DNA of 31,570 nucleotides from an uncultured Gammaproteobacteria bacterium (GTDB taxonomy: Bacteria; Patescibacteriota; Patescibacteriia; Patescibacteriales; UBA12465). Position numbers and translations under genes: made by a program. Shown piece by piece: positions 6,038 to 31,570 of this stretch; positions within the stretch are counted from its first letter, which is position 1; each line of letters starts with the position of its first letter. The stretch covers positions 30,130-61,699 of the forward strand of contig CAYSIJ010000001.1 of the NCBI GenBank assembly GCA_964431155.1, read 5' to 3'. The notes under the pieces are model-generated. The model ran no database searches, was not told the origin of the DNA, and saw only the letters and a program-made list of their open reading frames with translations.

Positions 6038-6066
6038 ATTATAGTAAATTTATCAGAACTCTACAA
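6038..6066 (-). promoter_or_regulatory. Putative ftsA-ftsZ promoter
   Basis: TTGTAG-17 bp-TATAAT; the -35 overlaps the stop codon of the prepilin peptidase gene. Confidence 0.55.
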
Positions 6067-6861
6067 TAAGCCCAAATACCAACCGATAATTCCTGGCCCG
6101 AAAAAGATCGTAATCATTCCGCCCAGAGCCAGAAAAAACCCGAGTGGCAAGGCCCCGCCAAGTTTTTTCTTGCCGAAAGCGATAAGCGACAAGCCAGTGA
6201 TTGCACCAAGAAAATAAGAAATAACAACAGCAAACAATAAAAATAAGTGAAGATATTCTGGAAAAATAAAGCCCAAAAGAATTCCTAAATAAATATCGCC
6301 TTCGCCAATTCCTTTCCCTTTGGTTAAAAAATATTGCAGAAAGAAAAACCCGCCCCCAAGAATCGCGGAAACGAGCGGCATAAACCAGGCAATTCCCAAA
6401 AATAAACTAAAAATATAAAGCACCAATGAAGCGCCTAACACAATAGAAGGAGAAACCAGGTAATATCTCCCGTCATAAATCAGAACAAATAACAGGACGG
6501 CCAAAGAAAAAATTTGGCCAATAAACTGCAGCCACTCATTCCCTGAAGGTAGCAAGGTGGAAAAATAAAGATGGTTTTTAAAAAACAAAAGAAAAGCTCC
6601 AGAGAAAAGAATCCCCCCGAAGAGCTCGGCGGCAAAATATTGCCAGCTGATTTTTTTATGGCAAGATGAACACTGACCTCTTAATAACAAATAGCTGAGC
6701 ACAGGGATATTTTCAAACCAAGACAACTTCCGCCCACAAGCATCACAGCGAGAAGATGGCCAAGCACTTTCATTTTTATAAAGGCGCCAAGCTAAACAGC
6801 TGAGAAAACTGCCGAAAACTGCACCTAGAAGAAAAAAATAAAAACCAAAAAGATAGTACAT
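6061..6861 (-). CDS. pilD: Type IV prepilin peptidase (PilD/ComC, A24 family)
   Basis: GAVFGSFL...SRCDAC...ENIPVLSYLLLRGQCSSC zinc-binding N-domain, catalytic YD and GEGD motifs, and multiple TM helices. Confidence 0.93.
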   Translation of the reverse strand: MYYLFGFYFFLLGAVFGSFLSCLAWRLYKNESAWPSSRCDACGRKLSWFENIPVLSYLLLRGQCSSCHKKISWQYFAAELFGGILFSGAFLLFFKNHLYFSTLLPSGNEWLQFIGQIFSLAVLLFVLIYDGRYYLVSPSIVLGASLVLYIFSLFLGIAWFMPLVSAILGGGFFFLQYFLTKGKGIGEGDIYLGILLGFIFPEYLHLFLLFAVVISYFLGAITGLSLIAFGKKKLGGALPLGFFLALGGMITIFFGPGIIGWYLGLL

Positions 6862-15635: not shown

Positions 15636-16058
15636 TTATTTTTTTATCTTAAAATTATCTTGGCAAGCGGTTTTAAATTCTTCATTGCTAATTTGATCAC
15701 AAATTTTTCCATCCCGCAAATCAGTCGCGAGACTCAGAAGACAAATAGAAGCACCATCTAGGTTCTGCATTTCTTGGCAACGACTGCTTTCTTTACTAGC
15801 TAATATTTCTTGGTACAAGGCTTTGTCATGCTTGGCTTTTTCAAGGCGAGCAGCTTCTTTTTGTCGCCATTTAGTAATTCCTTCATTCACTGGATAAAAT
15901 TTTTGCGCATTCTCCGGCTGTTTTGTTCCCAGTTGTTTTAGTTCTTCTTTCGGTTTATTTAACAAGCTAAAAAATAACCACGAGACTAAAGCGAAAAGCA
16001 GTAGCGCTCCGGAAATAATAATGATAAAACGATGCTGACGATTTTGCCAATTAATCAT
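15636..16058 (-). CDS. Membrane-anchored protein with a C-terminal 4-Cys helical repeat (140 aa, start revised to MINWQ)
   Basis: ATG 16058 lies 4 bp past the upstream stop and avoids a 53-bp overlap; N-terminal TM; C-terminal RCQEM...IC...ICDQI...AC. Confidence 0.7.
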   Translation of the reverse strand: MINWQNRQHRFIIIISGALLLFALVSWLFFSLLNKPKEELKQLGTKQPENAQKFYPVNEGITKWRQKEAARLEKAKHDKALYQEILASKESSRCQEMQNLDGASICLLSLATDLRDGKICDQISNEEFKTACQDNFKIKK

Positions 16059-16062
16059 AGGA

Positions 16063-19000
16063 TTAAAAATTATCACCGGAAATTTGGGTTGATAAATGAT
16101 AGATGAGATTACCAAAAATTTTATACTCTTCGGGCTTTAAAGCGGCGCCATTGTTATGCCCCAATTGAATTGAAGCGACGCGATTGCAAACACTTGCCCA
16201 GGAATAAGTTGGCGAAGTCGGAATATGGAAAATATTTGTTAATAAGGAGCTAGCTGCCGAACAAGCCGAACCGCCGCATTGCGGGCCACAAGCACTATTA
16301 GCCGCTTTCAATAAATAAGATGGCTGCCAAGTATTGACCGTAATGTTACCAGTAGAAAGCGAGAATATCTCTCTGGAATTATTGGCGTGAACAATCATGG
16401 TGGCATTTACTGGAGAAAAAGTATTGGGAACTGTCCCCGAATAGTCGCTGAAGATTGTTCCATTTAGAGTTTTCCCGCCAAAAACCACCATCCCACCATT
16501 TTTAATAAAGTTTTCTACTAAAACACGGGCCAAGGGATCAGGATAACTCAAATTATTTCCCATTCCGAAAACAATGAGGTTGTATTTTTCCAAAATATTT
16601 CCTACTGGTAAATATGAAGTTGGACTGGAATTAAACACATTCATCGACACTGTATCAACAGAATAATCTACCTGACCGGAAGTATCGTTATCAACAATAG
16701 CGACATTGTCCCGGAAAGAAGAATCGGTTGGATTATTTCCCAGAGTATTTAAAATGGCCTTAACGGAAATTGTATTTGCGGCTCCAGAACTATTTCCAGC
16801 ATAAACCTGAAGAATTTTTAATTGGCGAGCAATTTTACAACGATTATTGCAGTATTCTCCGAGATAGGCCTGGACTGAATATGGGTCGCCGGGATCGCAT
16901 TGTTCTCCCTGATTATTCTGGACTATTCCATCACCGCAATATGAACAATCCGTATGACAATATTGATTTGTATTAAAACCAGGATCATAAACTTCGTGAT
17001 CATCAGTGGTAAAAGTGCTATCTATGGAACCACAAATTCCATCGCCGCAATAGCCGCCGGTCGCTCGGCAATAATTGTTAGAAGTAATTGGATTTGGAGT
17101 AGTAGAACCAACGCCGGTGGTGCAAGAATACTGGCGAGAAGCCGAACTATCAGCCACATTGAGAGCGACTCCGCCGACACCGTCACACTCTTCCATTCCG
17201 TCATTATAAATTCCCCCTCTTTTTTCTTGATTCGGCGCCTGTTTAATTCCATCGCCGCAATAGCTATTAATCTTCAAAACGAAACTCTTGGTGGCAGAAG
17301 CACCGTATTCATTGGTCGCAGTAATGGTGATAGGAAATTCGCTTTGAGGCGCTGGGGTTGACGTACCCGTTGAAGTGTTTCTAGTTTCATCATATTCATC
17401 AAACCTGCTAGCATAATTAGCCTCTTCTTCAGAAGTAACGACTGAGAGATTGCCGCTCGTGTTATTTGTATCAAGTGCGGGGTTAGTTCTCTGAAAACAG
17501 ACTTGTTGTTTGGTTGCTTGCTGGTTAGCGGCTGGTGCGCCCAGAGATTCGGCGAAAGCCTCTTTGATTTGCAAAACATTCTTCGCCCAAGTAACAACTC
17601 TAAGGACTGGAGATAAAAGAGCGGAAGGAAGAATATTATTTTCCTCCTGCATTTCTTGTTGTTGGCTTTCTAATTGTGATTCTGCTTTCAAGATAACACT
17701 TTTCAAAACATCATCATATTTCTTAAAAAATGATTCTTGAAGAGTGGCTGCATTTTCCTGGTCATTTTCTGAAACAAATTTTTGATAGGATTGAGTGCTA
17801 CAAGGAAAATTACGGTTGATTGTCGGTGGAGTAGGAGGAACACCTAAGGCATTGCCGCTAATTCTCACCGTTCCAACCTTGCTGGGGTCAGTAGAGGTTG
17901 ATAAATTAGTTCCCGTCAAACCGGCAACTGAATAAGTAATATCGTGATCTTTGCTGTTTAAAAGTTTCACTACACAATCATAGGCCCCGAACTTTCGGAC
18001 ATTTTCTTCACATTGATAATCAAAAACTGGCTTATCTTGTTTTAAATTAATTATAAAATCTTTCACCGAGGAACCGCCTGATGAGTTGTTGAGAGTAACC
18101 CGATAATTTAAGACTTTATTTGAACCAGCAGGAACATCTATTCTTCCACTATTTTGAAAAATAGTGACCTTGAATCTGCCCCTTTCAATCTTTTCAATTT
18201 TTGACTCCAAGCCACTTGGTAAAATGCCGGATGAACCACCACTAAGAGACGGCCGTGTATAGCTTAAAGTGTAATTTGGAGTGCCGGAATCGGAAACTGA
18301 ATCATCATTCAAATAGAATGAATAACTTAATCTATTATTGTTCAAAATAAAATCGGAGTTTTCTGCCTCAATTTTTGGCTTTGACTTGCTAATGGTAATT
18401 TTAAAAACTTTGGTTTGCTGTCCGAGCCGATTGTCAGAAACCTTGATGCTAATTTCTGCCGCGCCAACAGTCAAAGCCTTTCTTGAATAAACTTTTTTCT
18501 GATTTGGATTATTAGTGTCAACCAAAGTGACGCCGCCATCAAAAATGCTTGCGCCCGATATCACCGAAAGCTCCCAGGTCAATGGGTTGCCGCTTGGATT
18601 TGCTACCTTGATAAAACCGCTAAACTCCTGACCGAGCTCGCCTTGAAGATTCGCCGCTTCAAAAACTGGGTTAACCGGAGAGGTTGGGGCATCAATTTTC
18701 ACACTACAAGCCCCCTGACTCAAAAGCCTGTCAACAGTATTATAATTATTCACCGAATCAGCACTACCGTGAGTCTCCATTGAGGCACACAAACTATATT
18801 TGGCGCCACTATTTTCTGATTGATAAGCCATGACTAAACTATTATTCGGAAACTCTAGTGGATTAGTTTTAGCGGCAAAAGTGCTTAGGTTTTTATTCCA
18901 ACAGGTGACAGCATCAAAACCTGGGCATTGGCCTAGTTTGTTAACTGGATCAACTAATGATTTATCAAGACCTAATTGAGCACCAAAAGTACTCTGCCAG

Positions 19001-19719
19001 CTTGGCCAAGTAGAAATAGTTAGATGAGGGAGATAACTACCTGATGGTAAATCCGGAAAACGACCGTTTTTTTCTTGATAATTTTTTAAGGATTCTTTTA
19101 TCTCAGCCAAAACTGACAAACGTTTTACATCGCGGGTAATTTTGGCTTTTAAGCTATCGCAAAATCCCTTGCCAAGACAATCGCCATCAACCAAACAAGT
19201 GGAGGTTGCCGCCACCGTAATCGCACACTTTCCAGGAGCCGCTAAATTATTATTGAATTTCCAATTAGCAATAATCTGGCCGAGCGCATCGGTGGTGCCA
19301 GGCTTTGAATCTTGGTTATAAGAGATTAGATAAATGTTGGTGTGAATGATATTTCCTAAAACATTGGTGGCATTAACATAAACTGTCCGGCCATCGCGGA
19401 TTGCTTCATAGCCATCAACAATCAAAAATTGCGGCGATCCGGAAAAACCTTTTTCGCGATACCAGCGTTCAATTCCATAATGCTCATCGTTTGGCAGAAT
19501 TCTAATTGCCACCGCATCCAAACTTTCACCTGATACGGCCTGAAAATGATCACTAGCATCAACGGCGGAATCTATCTCAGCTGCAGTCTGGTCGGCAGCC
19601 TGGCAAGGATTATTTACCAAGAAGAAACAACTGACAACCAACAAAAATAACCCAGCTGACAACAAAAAAGGCTGGTAATTTTTACCTCTATTAAACCGCT
19701 GGAACATTATTGGTTTCAT
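16063..19719 (-). CDS. 1218-aa secreted Cys-rich surface protein: pilin-like helix, Ig-like repeats, CGDG (DUF4215/Myxococcus Cys-rich-like) repeats, C-terminal class-I-GATase-like fold
   Basis: Signal peptide ending CQA; RDVKRLSVLAEIKESLKNYQEKNGRFP; three YCGDGI repeats; LKILQVY...YNLIVFG...FIKNGGMVVFG. Confidence 0.7.
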   Translation of the reverse strand: MKPIMFQRFNRGKNYQPFLLSAGLFLLVVSCFFLVNNPCQAADQTAAEIDSAVDASDHFQAVSGESLDAVAIRILPNDEHYGIERWYREKGFSGSPQFLIVDGYEAIRDGRTVYVNATNVLGNIIHTNIYLISYNQDSKPGTTDALGQIIANWKFNNNLAAPGKCAITVAATSTCLVDGDCLGKGFCDSLKAKITRDVKRLSVLAEIKESLKNYQEKNGRFPDLPSGSYLPHLTISTWPSWQSTFGAQLGLDKSLVDPVNKLGQCPGFDAVTCWNKNLSTFAAKTNPLEFPNNSLVMAYQSENSGAKYSLCASMETHGSADSVNNYNTVDRLLSQGACSVKIDAPTSPVNPVFEAANLQGELGQEFSGFIKVANPSGNPLTWELSVISGASIFDGGVTLVDTNNPNQKKVYSRKALTVGAAEISIKVSDNRLGQQTKVFKITISKSKPKIEAENSDFILNNNRLSYSFYLNDDSVSDSGTPNYTLSYTRPSLSGGSSGILPSGLESKIEKIERGRFKVTIFQNSGRIDVPAGSNKVLNYRVTLNNSSGGSSVKDFIINLKQDKPVFDYQCEENVRKFGAYDCVVKLLNSKDHDITYSVAGLTGTNLSTSTDPSKVGTVRISGNALGVPPTPPTINRNFPCSTQSYQKFVSENDQENAATLQESFFKKYDDVLKSVILKAESQLESQQQEMQEENNILPSALLSPVLRVVTWAKNVLQIKEAFAESLGAPAANQQATKQQVCFQRTNPALDTNNTSGNLSVVTSEEEANYASRFDEYDETRNTSTGTSTPAPQSEFPITITATNEYGASATKSFVLKINSYCGDGIKQAPNQEKRGGIYNDGMEECDGVGGVALNVADSSASRQYSCTTGVGSTTPNPITSNNYCRATGGYCGDGICGSIDSTFTTDDHEVYDPGFNTNQYCHTDCSYCGDGIVQNNQGEQCDPGDPYSVQAYLGEYCNNRCKIARQLKILQVYAGNSSGAANTISVKAILNTLGNNPTDSSFRDNVAIVDNDTSGQVDYSVDTVSMNVFNSSPTSYLPVGNILEKYNLIVFGMGNNLSYPDPLARVLVENFIKNGGMVVFGGKTLNGTIFSDYSGTVPNTFSPVNATMIVHANNSREIFSLSTGNITVNTWQPSYLLKAANSACGPQCGGSACSAASSLLTNIFHIPTSPTYSWASVCNRVASIQLGHNNGAALKPEEYKIFGNLIYHLSTQISGDNF

Positions 19720-19747
19720 ATTTTCAAGAAAAAATTAAGTTAAGATA

Positions 19748-19756
19748 ATTATACCA
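19748..19756 (-). promoter_or_regulatory. Internal extended -10 promoter upstream of the 1218-aa gene
   Basis: TGgTATAAT immediately after the stop codon of the 1862-aa gene. Confidence 0.55.
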
Positions 19757-19760
19757 CAAA

Positions 19761-22700
19761 TTATTTATTACTGAAAAAATAATATTCTTTTAAAATATCC
19801 CAGATGCATAAACCGCCGGAACAATTGGCGTCCGAAGAACAAGACTGAGCATTGTTATTACTACAAACCTTACTTGGACTTTTTGGAATAGCACTCTCGG
19901 AAATTTCCGGCAAATCATCACTTGTACCTGGCTTCCCCGCATCGCGACAATAATAAAAATCGTAATTAAAAGGATTGTTCGCGAAATTATTTTTATCACG
20001 CCACGGTGCCCAAGTGCCATCGGATTTTATTCTTGGCCAAGGATTCGCGCAAATAAAGACAAACAGCTCAGAACTGGATTTTTCTCCATTACCGCCGAAA
20101 TATTGATTACCGGTGGACATTTCCACGGTGGAATAAAGCAAAGTCTTGCCATCGTTAATTTTGTCAGCCGCAGTCGCAATAATTTTATTAGCCATTAATG
20201 AAACAGTAGTTGTAGAAATTAAGGAAGGATTTTCTGATTTGAATACCCAGGTCCAATTATAGCCAGTAACAGGATTTAATAGTTGATCATCAATACTATA
20301 AGCATTGGCTTCAAAAACTTTGTCACGATCACGCCTGGAATCAAACGAGGCATTTCCAGGGGTGTCATCAGCTGAATCATTGGCGGCCGTGGAAAACAAG
20401 TATTGATTAGGGACTAAGGTTGTATAATCAATTTCACAAATATCAGCTCTGGTGGTAAAAGTACTGACAAAAGCCTTGTATAGGTTATTGTTTATTTTTG
20501 CTTTAATTGCTCCTTGGTAAAACCCGCTATCTTGAGGCTGGCTAGCATATTTTTTGATATTCTGATCTATAACTTCGCCTATCTCTTCCCTTCTGATATT
20601 TAAATCACCTAGCTCCATAGAAAAATCTTGGACGTCAAGTTCCAGGCTAGACTTTAACATTTTAGAGCGAATTTCTCTTATCTTTTTCTTTAATTCTTCT
20701 AGCTCTTCAATTTGTGTTCCTAAATCCTTCCAGTTTGCGCCATTGACAGCTTTGGCAATCATCAAACCTGTATTATTTCTCCGTTTTTCTGCTTCATCCA
20801 ACAGATCATTAGTTGCTAAGATTTCGTTAAAATTTTTATTGATTTCGGCATCAGAAACTTTTTTCTGATAATTTTTAATCTGATTCTCGTACTCTTTTAA
20901 GTCACTATGGAGAACCTGAAAATCTGCTGTTGAAAAACCGGAATCATCCACAACACTCATCCCAACACCATCGCCACTCAAAACACCGTCCGCCGGAGAA
21001 TTTTCCTGGTTATTTCCCCTGACAAAAATTAAATATTTTTGACCACTCTTGAGCACAGCTTTTGGCTTAATAAGCGCAACTGTGGTCGTGGCAAAGTTTT
21101 TCACCCGATCCACAGCTTCAACATTGATGGGGACTTGGCAATAAGTATGATTAGCGGTATTGTCAGCCAAGGCTTTGTCTTTCTTGAAAATATTAAAAAA
21201 TGAAATAATTATTTTTTCAACACCCTGATAGGCTTTGACAAAAATATTTTCTTTTAAATTATCGGCTGCCAAAGGGGTGCTAGTCGGACACTTGAAGCCG
21301 GCCACATGCTCTTCCAAAAGTTTTACATTATTACTATTAAGACTGGTGCCAATCATGATGCGATCAAAATTGATTTGAAGAGCAGCGTTTCGGCAAACTC
21401 CAGTGCTGTCAGCAGCCGGGGAAACGCCGCTGATTGTTGGCTTGGGATAGCAACAAGAATCCACACCACAACCACTTAGACCAACCCCGCCGGGATTACA
21501 TTCACCATCATTAGAGCAACCACAACAAAGACCGCGTGAAGCACCACTGCAGTCTCCTTTGTTGGAAAGGCAGGATAATTTTGAATTGATTGCTTTGCAA
21601 GCGGTATCCGTTTTTGGATTACAACAGCAAACCCCACATTCACCGCCTGCTGAAGGCGCTGCGGAAGTTATTGTTCCGCCAGTGGAAGTTAGGCAAGAAA
21701 GATTTGACGTGGCGCCAAAAACCCCGGAACAAATTGAAGTATCGCATGTATAATTATTAGTGGTTTTCCCGGCAGTGCCACAACTTAGACCCAGGCCAGT
21801 GTTGCCGCCCGATGGTTTACAATTAGCTTCGCAAGCTGTGATGGAAGAATAGGTGCCATTTCTTCCAGGAGTACTGGAAGCACATTTATTATTTTCTGTA
21901 ATTGCATTATTTGGATCAGAGCAATTGTAATAAGCGCAATATCCTGGATCACTAGGAATTAAATTTCCAACACCACCGCGACAGACTGGCCCACCAGTCG
22001 CCTTGGCATCCAAACAGCAAACGGAAGAATGCGCCATGCATTCATCAGTGTCCAAAGTAGCACAATCGACGCAAGCACCGGTCGGGAAAGCCCCAGAAGT
22101 CGCACAGAACTGACCATTGTGACCTGAACAGTTGCAGGCAGCATCTCTGGAGTCAGTGTCGGCTCCGGCCGCAAAGCAACCAGAACATTTGCCAAATCCC
22201 GAATTGTCAGTTGGATTGGTATCAGAACCGCAAGTTCCACCACAAGTTAATGGCGCACAGCAATCTTGGTTACCATTGCTAATTTGGCAACAACATTCGC
22301 AAGAAGGTGCTTCGTCAATAACACACTCCCCCGAGGAATTACAAGTCTCTCCGCCTTTACATTGCAAATCAATTTTACATTTTCCCTCTAAGCATTTTTC
22401 TGTATTCTCACACAATGAACAATTATTACTAGTTTTTAGATCTACAGTGGAGGCACCTTTAGCGCAAAGGCCGCCATTTATTTTTATCCAACCATTGATA
22501 CAAGTGGTGTTTGAGCTATAAACTAGACGTTGGCGATTTTCATATTCTGGTAAAACTTTACAGAAAGAGCCTATTTTTTCTGTGTCGCTACAAATTTTTT
22601 CTGGATTTTTAATGCAACTGCCGTTAACGACAGAATAACCACTCGGACAACAAGGTCCTTTTGGCGCCGCGACTACTGTTGAACCGGAAGAACATTTACC

Positions 22701-25349
22701 AGGCACATTTGGACAAGTGCTACTAGTTTGGCAGGAGCCAACTTCTTTGGAAACACCGAGGCAGCTATCAAAAGTGCTAGGTGGAGGAGTAGTGGGATTT
22801 GTGATATCTATTGTCCCGAGTTTAGTGCTAAAAGCCCATTCAAAAACTGAATTTTTAACATCACCCACACAATCAGCAAGATCGCTCACACACTGGCCTT
22901 TCAAAGAAGTGGTTACTGGACAACAAAATTTTCCCGACGAGCAATCGGAATTTTTTCCGCAAGCACCAACTTGAAAATTAACTGGGTTACTATCCTCTAA
23001 TCTTACTAACCCGGAAACCGCGGCGGCAGGAACAAGCACTTCTGCTTTATTAGTTTTATTGCTAATTGAAATTGTAGAAGCAGCAGCAATTGAATTAAAA
23101 TAAACCTTCACGGCAGAACCACTTGATCCAAAATTTTCTCCAAAAAGTGTTGTCGTGGAATTTGCCGGACCGCGGCTAGGATCAATTTTACAAATTCCTG
23201 GTTTCAATTTTTCATTAGAATCAAAATAAAAAGATAGGTTGTTTGAGGAAGAATGCATTTCCCAGGAATCAGTTTTGATCATTACATCGCTTTTTTGCGG
23301 ATTAATTCCGTCAGGAGCTTTAACAAGAATCTGCTTATCCGACCAGAGATCGGCCGCACATTCGCTTGGAAAAGTATAAACCGCTTCTTTACTACCGAAA
23401 AACACTTTGCCATTTCCACGGTTATCACCAAAATTACTGCCGCTGATTGTAACATATTGTCCTACTGGACCTCTATCGGGAGAAATCGCCGAAATATTTG
23501 GAGCCGCGGGAAGATCGTTCAGCTTTTCAAAAAATAAAAAATTACTTTTTGGTTTTCCATTGCTGACAAAAATACTATTATTACCAACTGCCAAAACAGG
23601 AACGGCGGCACTAGCCTTGGTGTCACTAGCAAATTTTCCCTGACCATTAAGATTTTTTTGATAATCACCAAAAAATACCGAACCATTGCCAAAGTTATTT
23701 CCAAAAAGAGAAATAACTTCGTTGGTCTGCGCAGCGCTTGGCGACAACCTGCAAAGACCAGGACGAGAAATCCCATTCTTTAAAAAATCTTTAATTTTTG
23801 GTCCATTGTCGTCATCTGTCGTTTCTATTTCATTGAACCGCGACCGGATTTCAATTTTGCCGTTTTGGACATCATCAGGAACGACGACAATAATTTGATT
23901 AGCACTGAAACTTGAACATTGGGAATATATTTCCGAGGCAGTTTTAACTGTTACTCCGCCGATAGTAATTGAGCGTCCAGCGGTTTCATCAACAATTTTC
24001 AGATCATCAATAAACAAGGAAGTCCCGTTGCCAGTCGGCCCACCAACCAAAACAAAACGCATTTTTGGGCTCCCAATTTTTGGCGAATTACCAAGTGAAA
24101 AAAATATTGTTCTTTGGTTGCTATATTGTCCTGGGATAATCTCAGTGATTTTTTTGTCATCAAAATAAATTTCTAAACGATTAGTTAGTTCCCCTTCAAA
24201 AGTAATTTGCCCACCGTACTGACGACCATCTTGAAAACCAACTTTTTCCAGATCATAAAAAACTTCGGCATTGGCATCAGTGCCATCAACATTCCCTGGT
24301 TTCTGCCAGAAAAGTAACGACATAGACTCTTTAATCGGCGTTTTTGCAAAAGAAATTTTAGCCGCATCGCCGGCTTTCAAATCGCCAAAATTGGGACTGC
24401 CAATGCTTCCGCCCTCAGGATAGCTATCAAATTTTTCCTCAAAAATTTCCTTACCTGATGGCTTATTAAAATTTTTACCAAGAATCGTTAAAAGATTTCC
24501 TGGCTTGCCATTTGGCGTAATGGTGTTACAAGTGGAACTTGGGCAGTCAGCATTTGTGTCACAAGGCCTGTTATAATTATTTTCACAAAAACCGCCCGCC
24601 GGGCTAACACTCAAAATAGTAATTGGCCCCTCACAAACACAAGAACCAGTATTACAGGTTAAACCATCAGCGCAATTATTTCCATTAACATCGCAGGAGC
24701 CGTCTTCTTTAAAACCGCAAGAATCACCCGATTGGCTTTTGTCTTCACATAAGCAATTATTATTACAAATCTTATCCGGTGAACCGCAAAGATTGTCGTT
24801 TGGTGTGCAAGAACCCAAATTAGAACCACCATTGCAGCTTATTGGGGTAGACGTTGAGTTTGTACAATCATAACCTGAACAAGTCGGATTACCACCGTCG
24901 CAGACAATATGCCCACCGCAGAAACAAGGGGTGCCGGCCACGCAAGCTCCTCCCGGATAAATGGAATTACCACCATTATTGCCATCGCCTAATAACCTAT
25001 TAATTACAAAATAAGCGATTCCCCAGGCGGATAAAATAATAATTAAACCAATTAAACCAGATCTTAGAATTTTTTTTGCTTTGGTGATTTGTTCTTCACT
25101 ACCATTACTCTTCATCCAAACAAACCCTCCCCAAAGAATAATACTAACGGCAATAATTCCCAAAAACATCAATGAGAGGTTGATAATTCGGACCGCCATA
25201 TCACGCGGGTCACTCGCTGATAAGTTTATGTCGGCTCCTACTTGGTCCACCCCAGTATCAACCGTGGTTGCAGCCAAAGCCAAACGAGCGCCAAAAAGCA
25301 CAGTAAAACAAAAAATCGCGCTTAATAAAATTTTACTAGATTTTTTCAT
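19761..25349 (-). CDS. 1862-aa surface protein: N-terminal TrbC/VirB2-like (T4SS-type) pilin, Cys-rich modules, IPT/TIG repeats, SbsA-like Ig domain
   Basis: MAVRIINLSLMFLGIIAVSIILWGGFVWMKSNGSEEQITKAKKILRSGLIGLIIILSAWGI (pilin hairpin); repeated (I/L)SPxxG..TLxGxNFG TIG starts; ISGVSPAADSTGVCRNAALQINFD; dozens of Cys. Confidence 0.8.
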   Translation of the reverse strand: MKKSSKILLSAIFCFTVLFGARLALAATTVDTGVDQVGADINLSASDPRDMAVRIINLSLMFLGIIAVSIILWGGFVWMKSNGSEEQITKAKKILRSGLIGLIIILSAWGIAYFVINRLLGDGNNGGNSIYPGGACVAGTPCFCGGHIVCDGGNPTCSGYDCTNSTSTPISCNGGSNLGSCTPNDNLCGSPDKICNNNCLCEDKSQSGDSCGFKEDGSCDVNGNNCADGLTCNTGSCVCEGPITILSVSPAGGFCENNYNRPCDTNADCPSSTCNTITPNGKPGNLLTILGKNFNKPSGKEIFEEKFDSYPEGGSIGSPNFGDLKAGDAAKISFAKTPIKESMSLLFWQKPGNVDGTDANAEVFYDLEKVGFQDGRQYGGQITFEGELTNRLEIYFDDKKITEIIPGQYSNQRTIFFSLGNSPKIGSPKMRFVLVGGPTGNGTSLFIDDLKIVDETAGRSITIGGVTVKTASEIYSQCSSFSANQIIVVVPDDVQNGKIEIRSRFNEIETTDDDNGPKIKDFLKNGISRPGLCRLSPSAAQTNEVISLFGNNFGNGSVFFGDYQKNLNGQGKFASDTKASAAVPVLAVGNNSIFVSNGKPKSNFLFFEKLNDLPAAPNISAISPDRGPVGQYVTISGSNFGDNRGNGKVFFGSKEAVYTFPSECAADLWSDKQILVKAPDGINPQKSDVMIKTDSWEMHSSSNNLSFYFDSNEKLKPGICKIDPSRGPANSTTTLFGENFGSSGSAVKVYFNSIAAASTISISNKTNKAEVLVPAAAVSGLVRLEDSNPVNFQVGACGKNSDCSSGKFCCPVTTSLKGQCVSDLADCVGDVKNSVFEWAFSTKLGTIDITNPTTPPPSTFDSCLGVSKEVGSCQTSSTCPNVPGKCSSGSTVVAAPKGPCCPSGYSVVNGSCIKNPEKICSDTEKIGSFCKVLPEYENRQRLVYSSNTTCINGWIKINGGLCAKGASTVDLKTSNNCSLCENTEKCLEGKCKIDLQCKGGETCNSSGECVIDEAPSCECCCQISNGNQDCCAPLTCGGTCGSDTNPTDNSGFGKCSGCFAAGADTDSRDAACNCSGHNGQFCATSGAFPTGACVDCATLDTDECMAHSSVCCLDAKATGGPVCRGGVGNLIPSDPGYCAYYNCSDPNNAITENNKCASSTPGRNGTYSSITACEANCKPSGGNTGLGLSCGTAGKTTNNYTCDTSICSGVFGATSNLSCLTSTGGTITSAAPSAGGECGVCCCNPKTDTACKAINSKLSCLSNKGDCSGASRGLCCGCSNDGECNPGGVGLSGCGVDSCCYPKPTISGVSPAADSTGVCRNAALQINFDRIMIGTSLNSNNVKLLEEHVAGFKCPTSTPLAADNLKENIFVKAYQGVEKIIISFFNIFKKDKALADNTANHTYCQVPINVEAVDRVKNFATTTVALIKPKAVLKSGQKYLIFVRGNNQENSPADGVLSGDGVGMSVVDDSGFSTADFQVLHSDLKEYENQIKNYQKKVSDAEINKNFNEILATNDLLDEAEKRRNNTGLMIAKAVNGANWKDLGTQIEELEELKKKIREIRSKMLKSSLELDVQDFSMELGDLNIRREEIGEVIDQNIKKYASQPQDSGFYQGAIKAKINNNLYKAFVSTFTTRADICEIDYTTLVPNQYLFSTAANDSADDTPGNASFDSRRDRDKVFEANAYSIDDQLLNPVTGYNWTWVFKSENPSLISTTTVSLMANKIIATAADKINDGKTLLYSTVEMSTGNQYFGGNGEKSSSELFVFICANPWPRIKSDGTWAPWRDKNNFANNPFNYDFYYCRDAGKPGTSDDLPEISESAIPKSPSKVCSNNNAQSCSSDANCSGGLCIWDILKEYYFFSNK

Positions 25350-25367
25350 AAAATAATTTCTGGAAAT

Positions 25368-27968
25368 TTATTTACAATTACCATCCGCATCCAAGCCCGT
25401 TGCATTGCTAACCGGAACATCAAAACAACAGGAAGGGCTAACCGCAGAAGCAGGGCAAGAATCACTGCCACTCGGTTTGAAACAATTTTGATAAATATCA
25501 CGAATACCCGATCCAGCCTGAGCATTAAAAGCGCTAGATTCGGAAAATACAGAATGATTAATTTTAATAGTCGTTTGGTCTAATACTCCATTATCGCCAG
25601 CGGACTTGTTAAACGAAGAAACCCAATAACCAGCCGGATTACCAAAACTGCGGATATTTAAAAACTTGTGCTCTACATCGCCTTTGCCATTGTTTATTAT
25701 TTTTGAACCAGTGACCAAGCTAGCATTCAACATTAACCGAGAAAATTCAATCGTAATCGGAACATTGAGATCGGCACCACTCACATTATTTTCCGGAGAA
25801 ATTGTCCTGATAATCGGGGCAGTGGTTTCCATTTGATCGCTAATGAAGAATGACCACTGGAAATTATCTTTTTTGTTTTTGTCGCCCACATTTTCATTAA
25901 AAATATCTACTGGCCCATCAGAAAAAGTATCGCGATTTCCATCAAATGAATTACTGGAAGCATCAAAAATTCCTTTCAAAGAAAGAACATTGGCGGCTGG
26001 ATAAAACTTTCCGGCAGAATTTGCGCAAGATTTGTGGGATAAGGCTGAGAGATTATTACAGTTGCTAAAAGGCGCCTTCGTTCCACAAGCCGTGTTATCG
26101 CTACAATTTTCTAAATCAGCGGCAATTAATTCAACTTTCAAATTAGAATTAGCGGGCAAGCAATAAATTTTTTCACCACAACCATTCACGCCACATTGAT
26201 TATCTGATAAAAATTCTAGAGTCTTATAATCGCTAGAAAGTGTGAAATTTCCCGTAACTGGCTGACCATCATTAATATTAATTACCCGGATTGTGCTGCT
26301 CACAAAATTTGATGGCCCAGCAATTGTGAGGGGATTTATTTCTTTGCTAAAATTGATTTGAATTGCTGAATTCATTGGCTGATCAGGCTTGCCACCACCA
26401 GGATTCAAGGTTTTGCCACCATCCGCTCCACCAGAAAACGGTGTTATTTTGAAAGTGCCTGAGCGAGCAGATGAAAGAGAAATATCATTCCCCTGAGCAC
26501 CAGGCTTGGCAATAATGGTTAGGACATTGCCGCTAATAGCGACGTCTTTGAATTCATTAAAAACAGCAGGGTTCTCCAAAAATGCTTTCACCTTGCTGAC
26601 AGTTTCTGCTAAAGTGCCTGCCTGGTTGATACTTAAATTTCGACCGCCAACAGTTAAAATATCGGCTGGATAAGGTTTATTTAATTTTATCTTCCAAGAA
26701 TTTCCAGCAACTACTTTATCTATTTTAAAGCTGAAAAAATTTGGAAAGCTGACCAGATATTCATTTCCTTGCTTCACGGGTTGCGCCGCACCACGCGATT
26801 TTCCGCCGGCAGAAATCACAAAAACATTTCCCGAATCAACACTCACTTCAAAAACATCTCCTGGGTCGTTGGAAATCTCTTGGTAGTTATTACTCATTAC
26901 GAAAGAGCTGGAATCGAGACTTGAGGAATTTCCTCCTGGCGTTGAGGTGAAGGAAGCTTCTTTTTCTGGGCCCATTGCTCTTACGATTTCAATTTTGGCA
27001 ATTGCTGAAGAGCCGACCCTCTGAGCGAAAGAATCCTGTTGATTATCAACGGGAGGAAAAACGCCTTGAGAAACAACTATTGGCGGCACCAAATCAATCA
27101 GGCCATTAACTGAAAAATTCCATTCCAGATAATTGGGCTGGCATTTACTAAAAATATTTTCTCCTCTTAGATTTTTGATTTGATTGGTGAAGCGGACCCC
27201 ATAAGGAACCGCTACATTGGCCTCGCCAAGATATTCCTGAGGAAGAATGACAATAGTTTTTTTGTCATAAGACAGGCCGACTGTTGCCTTGGTCAAATTG
27301 GTGTTGTTGGTGTTGCAACCGCTGGCGCCACAGGCATTGCCGGCTTCTTTTTTGAAAATTTGAATCGCTTCCGGGTTGAGTTTGTTGCAAGCCGTTGAAC
27401 AAGCACAAGCATTACCGCTATCGTTTTTGCAAATGGATTCTGGGGCAACCTCTTCCTTGAAGGTCACCATGATTGAGGAATTTCGCGGCACATTGGATTT
27501 TTCAGCACTTGGAAAAAAATTTTCCACCACGCAAGCACCAACGGCACCAAGGCCGACTTGATAATTCTGGCCGCCAGTCGTGTCTACGCCTGAACCAGAG
27601 CCAGAACCACTGCCAGTCAATCTTCTCAAAATAAAAGCAGCAATTCCCCAAGCGGACAAAATAATAATTAAACCAATCAAAGCATTTTTCAGAATTTTCT
27701 TTGCGGTCGCAATCCGGTCTTCATTGCCATTACTAGTCATCCACACAAAACCGCCATAGATAACGAGCGACACCGCAATAATCCCCAAAAACATCAGGGC
27801 AAAATTGATAATCTTCACGGCCATCACTATCGGACTCGTGTCGCTCAAGGCAATAGTAGCACCGACTTGGTCTACCCCCGTATCAACTGCCGCAAAAACA
27901 AAAACCGCTGGCAAGAAAAAAGCCATCCCGAATAAAAAACCGACTAGCAATTTAAAACTTTTTTTCAT
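25368..27968 (-). CDS. 866-aa surface protein: N-terminal TrbC/VirB2-like pilin plus three SbsA-like (Big_5) Ig domains
   Basis: Pilin hairpin paralogous to that of the 1862-aa gene; VPRNSSIMVTFKEEV, PMNSAIQINFSKEINP and ADLNVPITIEFSRLM Ig-domain starts. Confidence 0.8.
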   Translation of the reverse strand: MKKSFKLLVGFLFGMAFFLPAVFVFAAVDTGVDQVGATIALSDTSPIVMAVKIINFALMFLGIIAVSLVIYGGFVWMTSNGNEDRIATAKKILKNALIGLIIILSAWGIAAFILRRLTGSGSGSGSGVDTTGGQNYQVGLGAVGACVVENFFPSAEKSNVPRNSSIMVTFKEEVAPESICKNDSGNACACSTACNKLNPEAIQIFKKEAGNACGASGCNTNNTNLTKATVGLSYDKKTIVILPQEYLGEANVAVPYGVRFTNQIKNLRGENIFSKCQPNYLEWNFSVNGLIDLVPPIVVSQGVFPPVDNQQDSFAQRVGSSAIAKIEIVRAMGPEKEASFTSTPGGNSSSLDSSSFVMSNNYQEISNDPGDVFEVSVDSGNVFVISAGGKSRGAAQPVKQGNEYLVSFPNFFSFKIDKVVAGNSWKIKLNKPYPADILTVGGRNLSINQAGTLAETVSKVKAFLENPAVFNEFKDVAISGNVLTIIAKPGAQGNDISLSSARSGTFKITPFSGGADGGKTLNPGGGKPDQPMNSAIQINFSKEINPLTIAGPSNFVSSTIRVININDGQPVTGNFTLSSDYKTLEFLSDNQCGVNGCGEKIYCLPANSNLKVELIAADLENCSDNTACGTKAPFSNCNNLSALSHKSCANSAGKFYPAANVLSLKGIFDASSNSFDGNRDTFSDGPVDIFNENVGDKNKKDNFQWSFFISDQMETTAPIIRTISPENNVSGADLNVPITIEFSRLMLNASLVTGSKIINNGKGDVEHKFLNIRSFGNPAGYWVSSFNKSAGDNGVLDQTTIKINHSVFSESSAFNAQAGSGIRDIYQNCFKPSGSDSCPASAVSPSCCFDVPVSNATGLDADGNCK

Positions 27969-30000: not shown

Positions 30001-30028
30001 AAAAAACACCCCTTTCGAGGTGTTTTTT
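30001..30028 (-). terminator. Terminator of hisS-rpsU
   Basis: aaaaaacacctc-GAAA-ggggtgtttttt. Confidence 0.85.
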
Positions 30029-30048: not shown

Positions 30049-30288
30049 CTAACGATTGTTGTTCATCTGGTCTTCTGGCAACTTGCCGGTCTTGCGCAAA
30101 AATTCCTTTTCTTTACTAAGCTTCATGCTTGTTAAAGCAGAAATTTTCAATTGGCGTTTGTTTTTCTTCGGTTTTAAGTGTTGAATGGAACGAGCTTTCT
30201 CAAGCCTTTTGCTGTTCTTCAAGCCTTTTTTGAATTTTCTCAAAAAACTTTCAAAACTTTCACCGGGTTTTCGTTTAAAATCAGCCAT
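30049..30288 (-). CDS. rpsU: 30S ribosomal protein bS21 (start revised to MADFKRK)
   Basis: KRKPGESFESFLRKFKK N-terminus and a basic helical protein of 79 aa; ATG 30288 has an SD at 6-nt spacing. Confidence 0.88.
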   Translation of the reverse strand: MADFKRKPGESFESFLRKFKKGLKNSKRLEKARSIQHLKPKKNKRQLKISALTSMKLSKEKEFLRKTGKLPEDQMNNNR

Positions 30289-30294
30289 AAAATC

Positions 30295-30301
30295 CACCTC
30301 C
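30295..30301 (-). promoter_or_regulatory. Strong Shine-Dalgarno site of rpsU
   Basis: AAAG-GGAGGTG-GATTTT-ATG. Confidence 0.85.
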
Positions 30302-30305
30302 CTTT

Positions 30306-31570
30306 CTAAATGTGTTTAATAATATTTATTAACTTGCTTTCATTATTGCTTAAATCTATTTTTTTTGCAAGTTTTTCCTTTATTTTTTTAATTGGCACGA
30401 TTTCTTGAACGGTTGAATCCATGTCCCGCATCAAAATAGTTTCATCCATTACTTCTTTTTTGCCCATAATTAAAGAAATTTTTGCCTTCACGCGCACTGC
30501 CTCTTCCATTTGGGTTTTTAGACTGTCTGTGGAAAAAGACTGGCGAATTTTGAAACCAGCTTGACGCAATTCATCAAATAATTGCAAAGATTTCAATTTT
30601 GCCGGATCACTTAATTGGGCGATAAAAACCAAGTTATCTTCCGCGTTTGGCAGAGGATAATGCCTATCACGCATTTTCAAGGCTGTTCTTTCAAGCCCAA
30701 TAGCTAGCCCGACTGCAGGAGATGGCTTTCCTCCCATATTTTCCACTAAAGAATCACAACGGCCACCGCCCGCCAAAGCATATTTACCTTGAGCAACGCC
30801 AGCATCATTGATTGGCCAGAATTCAAAAACAGCGTCATTGTAATAATTCAAACCACGTACCAAGAAAGGATTAAAGTTATAAGGAATATCTAATTCATCC
30901 AAATATTCACAGATTTTTTTGAAATGGTCGCGGCTTTCATCGGACCAAAAATCAGCAATTTGCGGGGCTTCTTCTCTTAATTTTACACAACCCTCTTCTT
31001 TGCAGTCCAAGAGGCTCAAGACATTTTTCAGGAGGTTTTGTTTGCAATGATGGCAAACTTTGGACTTCCGACCGCGCTCCCGATAAAAAGCCGAGAGTTT
31101 GTGACTATATTCTTTCCGGCAATCGGCGCCGCCCAAGCTGTTAATTTGCACCTGGATATCAATTCCTAAATCCTTAAAATAATGAAAGGCCAAACTAATA
31201 ATCATTGCTTCGGCAATCGGCTTTTTGTCTTTGATAATTTCTAAATCAAATTGCGTAAATTGCCGCTGAGAATTATTCTGCAATTTTTCGTTGCGAAAAA
31301 CCGAGCCGATAGAAAAAACGCGCAATGGTGATTCTATTTCATCTAATTTCTGTTCAATATAGTGCCGAACGATTCCCTGAGTTAATTCTGGGCGCAGGCA
31401 CATTCTTTCATTTTTTTCACCAATTAAAGCGTAGAGTTCTTTTTCACTGGATTTTCTGGTGCTTTTTTTGTATAAATCAATATTTTCCAAAATTGGCGTT
31501 TCCAAATGATCAAAACCATAACAAGCACAAAGCTCCTCCGCCTTGCGGCGAGCAATGTCAAAATATTGGC
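30306..31570 (-). CDS. hisS: Histidyl-tRNA synthetase-like protein, 5' partial (frame open to the window edge)
   Basis: The frame extends upstream of 31505 (QYFDIARRKAEELCACYGFDHLETPILE). Motifs LRPELT, FRNE..RQFTQ, LVRGLNYY, GGGRCD, GLER, plus a C-terminal anticodon-binding domain. Confidence 0.85.
   Translation of the reverse strand, partial: QYFDIARRKAEELCACYGFDHLETPILENIDLYKKSTRKSSEKELYALIGEKNERMCLRPELTQGIVRHYIEQKLDEIESPLRVFSIGSVFRNEKLQNNSQRQFTQFDLEIIKDKKPIAEAMIISLAFHYFKDLGIDIQVQINSLGGADCRKEYSHKLSAFYRERGRKSKVCHHCKQNLLKNVLSLLDCKEEGCVKLREEAPQIADFWSDESRDHFKKICEYLDELDIPYNFNPFLVRGLNYYNDAVFEFWPINDAGVAQGKYALAGGGRCDSLVENMGGKPSPAVGLAIGLERTALKMRDRHYPLPNAEDNLVFIAQLSDPAKLKSLQLFDELRQAGFKIRQSFSTDSLKTQMEEAVRVKAKISLIMGKKEVMDETILMRDMDSTVQEIVPIKKIKEKLAKKIDLSNNESKLINIIKHI

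Follow-up and report, generated by a model that had tools for sequence, protein, structure and literature searches.

In Bacteroidia, the anti-Shine-Dalgarno sequence (anti-SD) of the 16S rRNA is held in a pocket of the ribosomal proteins bS21, bS18 and bS6; the genes are devoid of a Shine-Dalgarno sequence (SD), and rpsU, which encodes bS21, is alone in carrying an extended one (Jha 2021 PMC7797042; McNutt 2023 PMC9976891; NAR 2026 PMC13000453). Bacteroidia ribosomes without bS21 translate rpsU faster, which gives rise to a feedback loop (PMC7797042, PMC9976891, PMC13000453). In the cryo-EM structure from Flavobacterium johnsoniae, a 13-bp SD-anti-SD helix is formed on the rpsU mRNA from -20 to -8, and the complex contains no bS21, whose C-terminal helix clashes with this duplex (NAR 2026 PMC13000457). 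Autoregulation through bS21-free ribosomes represents the clearest bacterial case of a 'specialised ribosome' and has so far been confined to Bacteroidota. Here we describe the same signature upstream of rpsU in a stretch of 31,570 nucleotides from an uncultured bacterium (contig CAYSIJ010000001.1, positions 30,130 to 61,699; referred to below as the window), and the observation extends to about 90 species. The original prediction, made from this sequence, had placed the window in the candidate phyla radiation (CPR). The host, a bacterium with a tiny genome, belongs to Candidatus Falkowbacteria (Patescibacteria, Parcubacteria group): the bS21 of the window shares 99% identity with its counterpart in a metagenome-assembled genome of this group (L001), and its homologues are named Falkowbacteria or Patescibacteria. 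No report linking bS21, rpsU or SD usage to Patescibacteria/CPR in this sense was found in the literature searched.

The rpsU gene of the window and its initiation region are composed of the following features:

30288..30049, minus strand: rpsU, an open reading frame (ORF) of 79 amino acids identified from its translation, encoding a divergent, long bS21 with the Patescibacteria-type C-terminal extension E[YF]LRK[TI]GKLPE

30295..30308, minus strand: extended SD element TAGAAAGGGAGGTG, mRNA positions -20 to -7, delimited from the sequence and the pairing energy

30289..30294, minus strand: 6-nt spacer GATTTT between the SD and the ATG, read from the sequence

On the minus strand this region reads 5'-TAG AAAGGGAGGTG GATTTT ATG GCT GAT TTT AAA, with the ATG of rpsU at 30288..30286, GGAGGTG at 30301..30295 and the spacer at 30294..30289; the GGAGGTG that had been predicted 6 nt ahead of the ATG is thus present. 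The element is complementary over 13 nt, with one unpaired base (-12), to the canonical 16S 3' tail CACCUCCUUUCUA-3', which is the tail of many bacteria and of which TAGAAAGGAGGTG is the exact complement. Pairing energies were calculated on the 25 nt upstream of each start (-25 to -1) against an assumed 16S tail, either GAUCACCUCCUUA or the longer Bacillus-type GAUCACCUCCUUUCUA. With GAUCACCUCCUUA, rpsU scores -16.0 kcal/mol and the 18 other starts of the window range from +1.3 to -4.0. With the longer tail, the value is -18.4 kcal/mol for rpsU and +1.6 to -4.0 for 19 other called starts, the exception being a doubtful small ORF at 16058 (-9.0) that pairs with the GAUCACC part only and at a wrong spacing. 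When both strands of the 31.5 kb were scanned, energies at or below -14 kcal/mol were found at four places of the minus strand and nowhere on the plus strand; apart from rpsU, these sites fall within the coding sequences of ftsZ, ftsA and an ORF with TSP3 repeats. The original prediction had singled out rpsU as the only SD-led gene among about 20 starts of the window, and both this claim and the gene names on which it relied (nrdD, nrdR, ftsZ, ftsA, pilD, secD, secF, clpP, rel and the giant genes) hold, the signal being even stronger than predicted.

A scan for bS21 with one genome per GTDB species returned 163 species, and the best 80 of these 163 were taken with 10-kb flanks (L001-L080). Together with the window they form an alignment of 81 translation initiation regions (TIRs), of which 66 distinct sequences in the -20 register served for the statistics by position. 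A purine block of the form TAGAAAGG-N-RGGTG is present upstream of rpsU in all 80 related species, and it begins exactly 20 nt ahead of the start codon in 70 of the 81 TIRs. Positions -20 to -13 are TAGAAAGG with 100% identity. Position -12 is free (A 74%, G 20%, T 6%) and position -11 is always a purine, A or G, either of which keeps the pair with U. The following positions are GG at -10 and -9 (98%), T at -8 (83%) and G at -7 (100%). By comparison, identity averages 64% in the flank from -45 to -21 and 77% at the third codon positions of the first ten codons. The helix of the clade thus comprises 13 complementary positions (8 + 5) with one base between, and all 77 rpsU genes that were called in the 80 related species score between -16.5 and -20.3 kcal/mol. 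In the spacer, the T at -3 and at -1 are conserved at 98-100% in the clade. The conservation of the rpsU SD in relatives had been set beforehand as a test of the prediction; the SD was recovered in all 80 species of the clade and, as detailed below, in 8 of 11 more distant lineages. The element is very probably a functional extended SD, kept by selection for its pairing with the 16S 3' tail.

The gene immediately upstream of rpsU has to be considered as an alternative source of this conservation:

30306..31570, minus strand: hisS, histidyl-tRNA synthetase (HisRS), truncated at its 5' side by the end of the window, identified by the Pfam domains tRNA-synt_His and HGTP_anticodon

The hisS frame adjoins rpsU directly and stays open up to the window end. 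Its start lies beyond this end and is not among the scored starts. The two genes are probably carried by one transcript. In the species of the window, TAG (30308..30306) is both the stop codon of hisS and the first three bases of the SD element. In the clade, the hisS stop is located at +5 in 33 loci, at +11 in 30 loci and at the block's own TAG in 7 loci (the group of the window); in the first two groups (63 loci) hisS reads through the block in another frame and ends inside rpsU. The stop is either a TGA within ATGGCTGA or the TAA at +11 in these 63 of 80 species, and ribosomes finishing hisS must therefore cross the SD and the start codon of rpsU. The block is kept despite the differences in the frame and the stop of hisS, and in distant lineages it lies between the two genes; it is thus the RNA that is under constraint, and not HisRS or the overlap of the genes. 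An origin of the block in the coding of the HisRS C-terminus or in the hisS stop codon was rejected on these grounds. Neither RNAalifold nor single-sequence folding detected a conserved RNA structure at the TIR, no covarying helix was observed in the alignment, and the TIR of the window is less structured than its shuffled versions (z = +2.5), so that a hairpin occluding the SD was also rejected. The search of the window against Rfam gave no family match, hence no known leader of a ribosomal protein (r-protein) gene or riboswitch.

The scarcity of SDs at the other genes was assessed on a control set of 760 starts of genes other than rpsU, drawn from those ORFs called in the window and the 80 loci whose 5' end is complete. 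Their median energy is -1.95 kcal/mol. Values at or below -8 kcal/mol are found for 3.0% of the starts, versus 5.8% in a mock region within the same genes, and values at or below -4 kcal/mol for 22% versus 39.5% (Fisher p = 2e-13). The frequency of G drops from about 0.2 at -30 to 0.07-0.12 at -15 to -1, the opposite of what is observed in a genome that uses SDs. No enrichment of SD-like 5-mers was detected upstream of the control starts. The best score over all ATG, GTG and TTG codons near the 5' ends of the ORFs showed no excess relative to matched non-start codons, and mis-called starts were rejected on this basis as an explanation masking SDs at other genes. The 304 genes that overlap or closely trail the preceding gene are equally SD-poor; coupling in these genomes therefore needs no SD. 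The only other r-protein gene examined was rpsP (S16), which occurs in the same loci as an SD-led rpsU in two distant lineages and scores +0.2 (L217) and -4.8 kcal/mol (L219). The frequency of SDs elsewhere in these genomes had also been set as a test, and SDs proved to be depleted at the 760 starts, unenriched in 5-mers and absent from rpsP. The long SD probably serves rpsU alone, and the other genes would start translation without SD-anti-SD pairing.

Two further features of the control starts were noted. A T is found at -1 in 69% of them, with A slightly increased at -6 and -11; together with the T(-3) of rpsU, this pattern may represent a clade-specific start context in place of the SD, unlike the A-rich context (-3, -6, -12, -13) of Bacteroidia. 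A few well-placed canonical SDs (AAAGGAGGT, AAGAGGAGGT, AAAGGGGGAG) exist elsewhere, mostly ahead of small ORFs without Pfam match; the genes concerned are L214 14965-15171 (-), 38-379 (+) and 11918-12097 (+), L207 10874-11122 (+), L053 10798-11661 (-) and L056 2989-3711 (+). These genes could be recent acquisitions or a second class of SD-dependent messages.

The long type of bS21 is not restricted to the clade. An exhaustive profile search recovered 170 cluster representatives and a word-indexed search 2,331 proteins; the latter are named Buchananbacteria, Falkowbacteria, Parcubacteria or Patescibacteria. The C-terminal motif E-Y-L-x-K-x-G-K-L is common to all. Eleven further lineages were fetched, among which the two with rpsP together with an SD-led rpsU (L217 and L219) were reached via the S16 protein of L209, whose matches are Magasanikbacteria-like and not Falkowbacteria. 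A strong SD precedes rpsU in 8 of these 11 distant Parcubacteria lineages, Buchananbacteria- and Magasanikbacteria-like ones included, with energies from -16 to -19 kcal/mol where scored:

L204 (Buchananbacteria): upstream motif TAAGGAGGTGA, -17.0 kcal/mol

L215: upstream motif GAAGGAGGTGA, -18.5 kcal/mol

L216: upstream motif AAAGGAGGTGA, -19.0 kcal/mol

L217 (Magasanikbacteria): upstream motif GAGGAGGTGA, -18.5 kcal/mol

L213: upstream motif CGGAGGTG, -16.0 kcal/mol

L207: upstream motif TAGAAAGGTTGGTGG, -16.6 kcal/mol

L214: upstream motif TAGAAAGGCAGGTGG, -18.7 kcal/mol, with C at the variable position -12

L219: upstream motif TAGAAAGTGAGGTGA, GTG start, no score at the true start

The first four motifs are contiguous and form the exact complement of UCACCUCCUU(A). 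The neighbours of the SD-led rpsU in the distant loci are mostly without SD. In these loci rpsU is separated from hisS by 45-184 nt, and the SD is therefore not tied to the overlap of the genes.

The likeness to F. johnsoniae and the other Bacteroidia concerns several levels. Both are SD-poor genomes in which rpsU is the lone gene with an extended SD and in which the other r-protein genes (here rpsP) lack one. The energy of the rpsU SD has its mode at about -20 kcal/mol in Bacteroidia and ranges from -16.5 to -20.3 kcal/mol in the CPR clade. In both cases the helix comprises 13 bp starting from -20 (to -8 in F. johnsoniae, to -7 as predicted in CPR) and engages nearly the whole 16S 3' tail, and in both the signature is conserved across a large clade and lost in some sub-clades. 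The CPR system differs from that of F. johnsoniae by its phylum (Patescibacteria/Parcubacteria) and by its bS21, which lacks Tyr54, is 15 residues longer and has a predicted C-terminal helix (44-67) longer than that of F. johnsoniae. Moreover, the helix of the Falkowbacteria-like clade is interrupted by one unpaired base at -12, unlike that of Bacteroidia, and rpsU is tied to hisS.

Other systems present a more partial resemblance. Classical autogenous repression of r-protein genes (S15, L20, S4, S8 and others) relies on structured leaders that mimic the rRNA site of the protein. The CPR element shares with these leaders the position of a conserved regulatory element in the initiation region of an r-protein gene and differs in being unstructured and complementary to the 16S tail. 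Strong rpsU SDs have been noted in Chlorobia (McNutt 2023, PMC9976891), another SD-poor lineage where rpsU stands out, as judged from sequence. Chlorobia belong to the same phylum as Bacteroidia and the trait may be inherited there; for the unrelated Patescibacteria, either convergence or a far more ancient origin is implied. In Bacteroidales, Cytophagales and Sphingobacteriales, rpsR (bS18) carries SDs of -8 to -12 kcal/mol (Jha 2021, PMC7797042): as here, the gene of a platform protein is the exceptional SD bearer in an SD-poor genome, with the difference that another gene and shorter SDs are concerned. In Francisella tularensis, the bS21 content of the ribosomes alters which mRNAs are translated, and the rpsU leader mediates autogenous control (PMC13374519, PMC9578407). 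This case differs by the presence of several bS21 paralogues and by a control that acts via the 5' untranslated region on how abundant and how stable the mRNA is, with no unique extended SD in an SD-poor genome.

The protein of the window is a divergent bS21. It remains below the thresholds of both reference models, with 16.1 bits for PF01165 (cut-off 27, E 0.009) and 15.5 bits for TIGR00030 (cut-off 28.95, E 0.012). In the wider Patescibacteria family a PF01165 match is recorded for many members, and the homologues are named 30S ribosomal protein S21. The top matches of the family profile in the PDB are the bS21 chains of many ribosome structures (E 6.5e-4 to 0.2, residues 1-60). The conserved bS21 core GE..E.ALRRFK....K.G.L.E.R...(Y)EKP is present, and the alignment with the bS21 of F. 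johnsoniae (reference sequence confirmed against PDB 7JIL chain z), E. coli and B. subtilis reveals that E10, L16, K20, R33 and P40 are kept. The core is followed by the 15-residue extension with the conserved motif E[YF]LRK[TI]GKLPE. The AF2 model displays two long helices (12-36 and 44-67; mean pLDDT 85.6); Foldseek found no significant match in the PDB for the isolated model, a comparison that is uninformative for so small and extended a protein. It has been reported that bS21 is 'frequently absent' from Parcubacteria (PMC9297842); the bS21 type described here reaches 16 bits, whereas the Pfam and TIGRFAM cut-offs are at 27-29, and such reports may therefore be partly detection failures. 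Many public records label the long bS21 type 'hypothetical protein'.

By analogy with Bacteroidia, the rpsU SD may be part of a bS21 feedback loop operating via bS21-free subunits, in which the long helix and bS21 would be mutually exclusive; we regard the chances of this reading as about even. In such a loop, the 16S rRNA would keep the canonical 3' tail ...GAUCACCUCCUUUCUA-3'. Complete 30S subunits would not use this tail, either because it is unavailable or because the 13-bp rpsU helix is incompatible with bound bS21, whose C-terminal helix would occupy the same space. Subunits still lacking bS21, the last protein to assemble, would form the -20 to -7 helix and translate rpsU efficiently, and the newly made bS21 would then complete the subunits and lower its own translation. 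The original prediction had proposed this same loop. Its sequence signature is present and conserved, and the analogy with F. johnsoniae is strongly suggested by this signature, including a helix of equal length that likewise starts at -20. The Tyr54 of Bacteroidia was not found at the C-terminus of bS21, and the isoelectric point (pI) is intermediate.

Several observations weigh against the feedback loop. The platform pocket of Bacteroidia is defined by Tyr54 of bS21, which stacks on A1534, by K/R37, F50, N56 and Q58 of bS18, and by W100, R103 and K107 in the C-terminal helix of bS6. Tyr54 aligns with T53 of the window protein, a non-aromatic position that varies in the family (T, I, S or A), and the pI of the C-terminal domain (10.45) is only moderately less basic than that of E. 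coli (11.9), for 9.53 in F. johnsoniae. Neither rpsR (bS18) nor rpsF (bS6) was found in the window or in the fetched loci. Judged by the residues that define it, the 'platform pocket' family thus does not include the CPR protein, though the latter may work alike. In three distant lineages (L209, L210 and L212), which are equally SD-poor and have the same bS21 type, no SD was found ahead of rpsU and no alternative start rescues one; the feedback loop is therefore dispensable, at least in 3 of the 11 lineages. The 760 control starts represent only about 15 orthologous families in addition to the genes of the window, they are hence non-independent, and they cover about 20-30 kb per genome. The anti-SD itself is only deduced, as the window, the 80 genome loci and 17 further loci yielded no 16S gene when searched with regular expressions for 16S primer sites. 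Finally, the bS21 of E. coli reportedly promotes the availability of the anti-SD, with no block, a result ascribed to Van Duin and Wijnands in 1981 and Backendorf et al. in 1981.

A first alternative is that of a genuine SD facing a freely available anti-SD, which would provide a constitutive, high-efficiency start with no bS21 feedback: a short and highly expressed gene placed after the weakly translated hisS would need its own site of entry or re-initiation. We consider it unlikely, while recognizing that rpsU directly follows or overlaps hisS in nearly all loci, that the pocket signature of Bacteroidia is absent from this bS21, and that plausible SDs exist at a few other genes (AAAGGAGGT in L053, AAGGAGGA in L056, small ORFs in L214), the recognition of SDs being therefore probably not abolished. 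This explanation has to face the fact that other abundant or coupled genes (ftsZ, clpP, rpsP and the 304 close-coupled genes) are without SD, and that the SD is retained where rpsU is 45-184 nt away from hisS. A 13-bp helix of -18 kcal/mol far exceeds the length needed for efficient initiation, and helices of this kind are specific to the control of bS21 in F. johnsoniae, the one system where this has been tested (PMC9976891). A constitutive start also leaves unexplained why the chosen gene is always rpsU.

A second alternative concerns the pairing partner. The 16S tail of the clade could be non-canonical, with an extra base (CACCU-U-CCUUUCUA, or -C-), in which case the common form TAGAAAGGAAGGTG would pair with it perfectly over 14 bp, and an altered anti-SD would have changed together with the rpsU SD, as in Chryseobacteria. 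The tail with an additional U is the best partner for 57 of the 81 TIRs (median -22.4 versus -18.1 kcal/mol), A and G predominate at positions -12 and -11 and can both pair with U, so that this variation would be tolerated by wobble, and the CCTCCT motif is undetectable in 52% of Parcubacteria 16S genes (Tsurumaki et al., PMC9297842). The variable position is however T in L018, L019, L021, L022 and L072, C in L214 and TT in L207. All four bases and TT are thus found among close relatives, as would be expected of an unpaired base more than of a 16S that changes, so frequent a change of the 16S tail being implausible. Furthermore, TAGAAAGGAGG is contiguous in L014, L042, L078 and L079, TAGAACGGAGGTG occurs without the extra base in L063 and AAGGAGGTGA is contiguous in distant lineages. 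From the contiguous GGAGGTGA or AAGGAGGTGA / TAGAAAGGAGG found upstream of rpsU in several lineages, the 16S of the clade would carry a CCUCC-type anti-SD; the upstream sequences thus favour a canonical tail, and an extra base appears doubtful. A tail with an extra base would be compatible with the feedback loop as well as with a constitutive start, the pairing being of 13-14 bp on either tail.

Searches for the tail itself were also carried out in metagenomes. A scan for the extra-base tail GATCACCTNCCTTTCT, with no 16S anchor in the pattern, returned at least 120 unrelated matches, with no AT-rich 16S among the matches listed, and constitutes neither a positive nor a valid negative. A scan of viral contigs for any 16S 3' end gave one match, a GC-rich unrelated 16S. 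A recurrent GC-rich element 'GGCTGGATCACCTCCCTTTCT' that ends in ...CCGTAGGGGTACACATCGGCTGGATCACCTCCCTTTCT was observed in the metagenome loci L090, L096, L104, L105, L106, L120, L140 and L184; it resembles helix 45 and the 16S 3' end, with an extra C in the anti-SD, and Rfam gave no match for it in L105 at the gathering threshold.

It is very improbable that bS21 promotes SD-anti-SD pairing, as reported for E. coli, or acts as a classical autogenous repressor by binding directly to the purine-rich leader, with feed-forward or protein-mRNA repression instead of bS21-free ribosomes. The classical E. coli biochemistry and the rpsU2 leader of Francisella tularensis, which mediates a bS21-dependent control of mRNA abundance and stability (PMC13374519), speak for it. 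Against it, the conserved block complements the 16S tail and does not imitate a site to which bS21 binds, no conserved structure was detected in the leader, and a positive feedback gives no homeostasis. The F. johnsoniae helix, which has the exact same length and placement, also favours exclusion (PMC13000457).

Returning to the mutual exclusion of the long helix and bS21, the recurrence of this signature in a phylum that is uncultivated and unrelated to Bacteroidota, and whose bS21 has another tail, suggests a general principle. A wider proposal, which we put forward tentatively, is that 'SD-blind' ribosomes arose independently across a large part of the Parcubacteria radiation (Falkowbacteria-, Buchananbacteria- and Magasanikbacteria-like lineages). 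In these ribosomes the anti-SD would be kept essentially to sense the occupancy of bS21 via the 13-bp rpsU helix, the gate being the Patescibacteria-specific C-terminal extension of bS21 and not the Tyr54/bS18/bS6 pocket. If true, bS21-gated specialised ribosomes would be a recurrent solution in SD-poor bacteria. The rpsU signature itself offers a possible reason for the retention of the anti-SD in SD-poor lineages, and a testable handle on translation initiation in CPR, a subject on which almost nothing is known.

These genomes have a practical consequence for annotation, since gene callers based on an SD model will mis-start genes here. Some public calls begin rpsU at a GTG or ATG within the SD, and the calling of ORFs from their first start likewise places the rpsU start of the window at the GTG within the SD (30297), which is an artefact.

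Downstream of rpsU, the window contains one further feature:

30001..30028, no strand: terminator-like hairpin with A/T runs on both sides, 21 nt past the rpsU stop codon

This hairpin is placed between the convergent genes rpsU and rel. On the other side, a sigma-70-like match TTGCAA-17-AATAAT (9/12) was observed at 30342-30370 (-), inside the 3' end of hisS, with about 35 nt between it and the SD; the match is weak and not above the expectation from shuffled sequences. The gene order lepB - hisS - rpsU - (yqeY) - giant secreted proteins is kept from Falkowbacteria to the Buchananbacteria- and Magasanikbacteria-like lineages (16063-27968 (-) in the window; L204-L219). The giant secreted proteins display T4SS_pilin, Big_5 and TIG domains and reach 866, 1862 and 1218 amino acids in the window and more than 4,800 elsewhere. 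Finally, pilD is a single ORF of 266 amino acids in the window (6061-6861, minus strand) and is represented by two overlapping ORFs (154 + 126 amino acids) in the near-identical JGI contig L201 (4720-5530), a difference due to a frameshift or to an error of assembly in either sequence.

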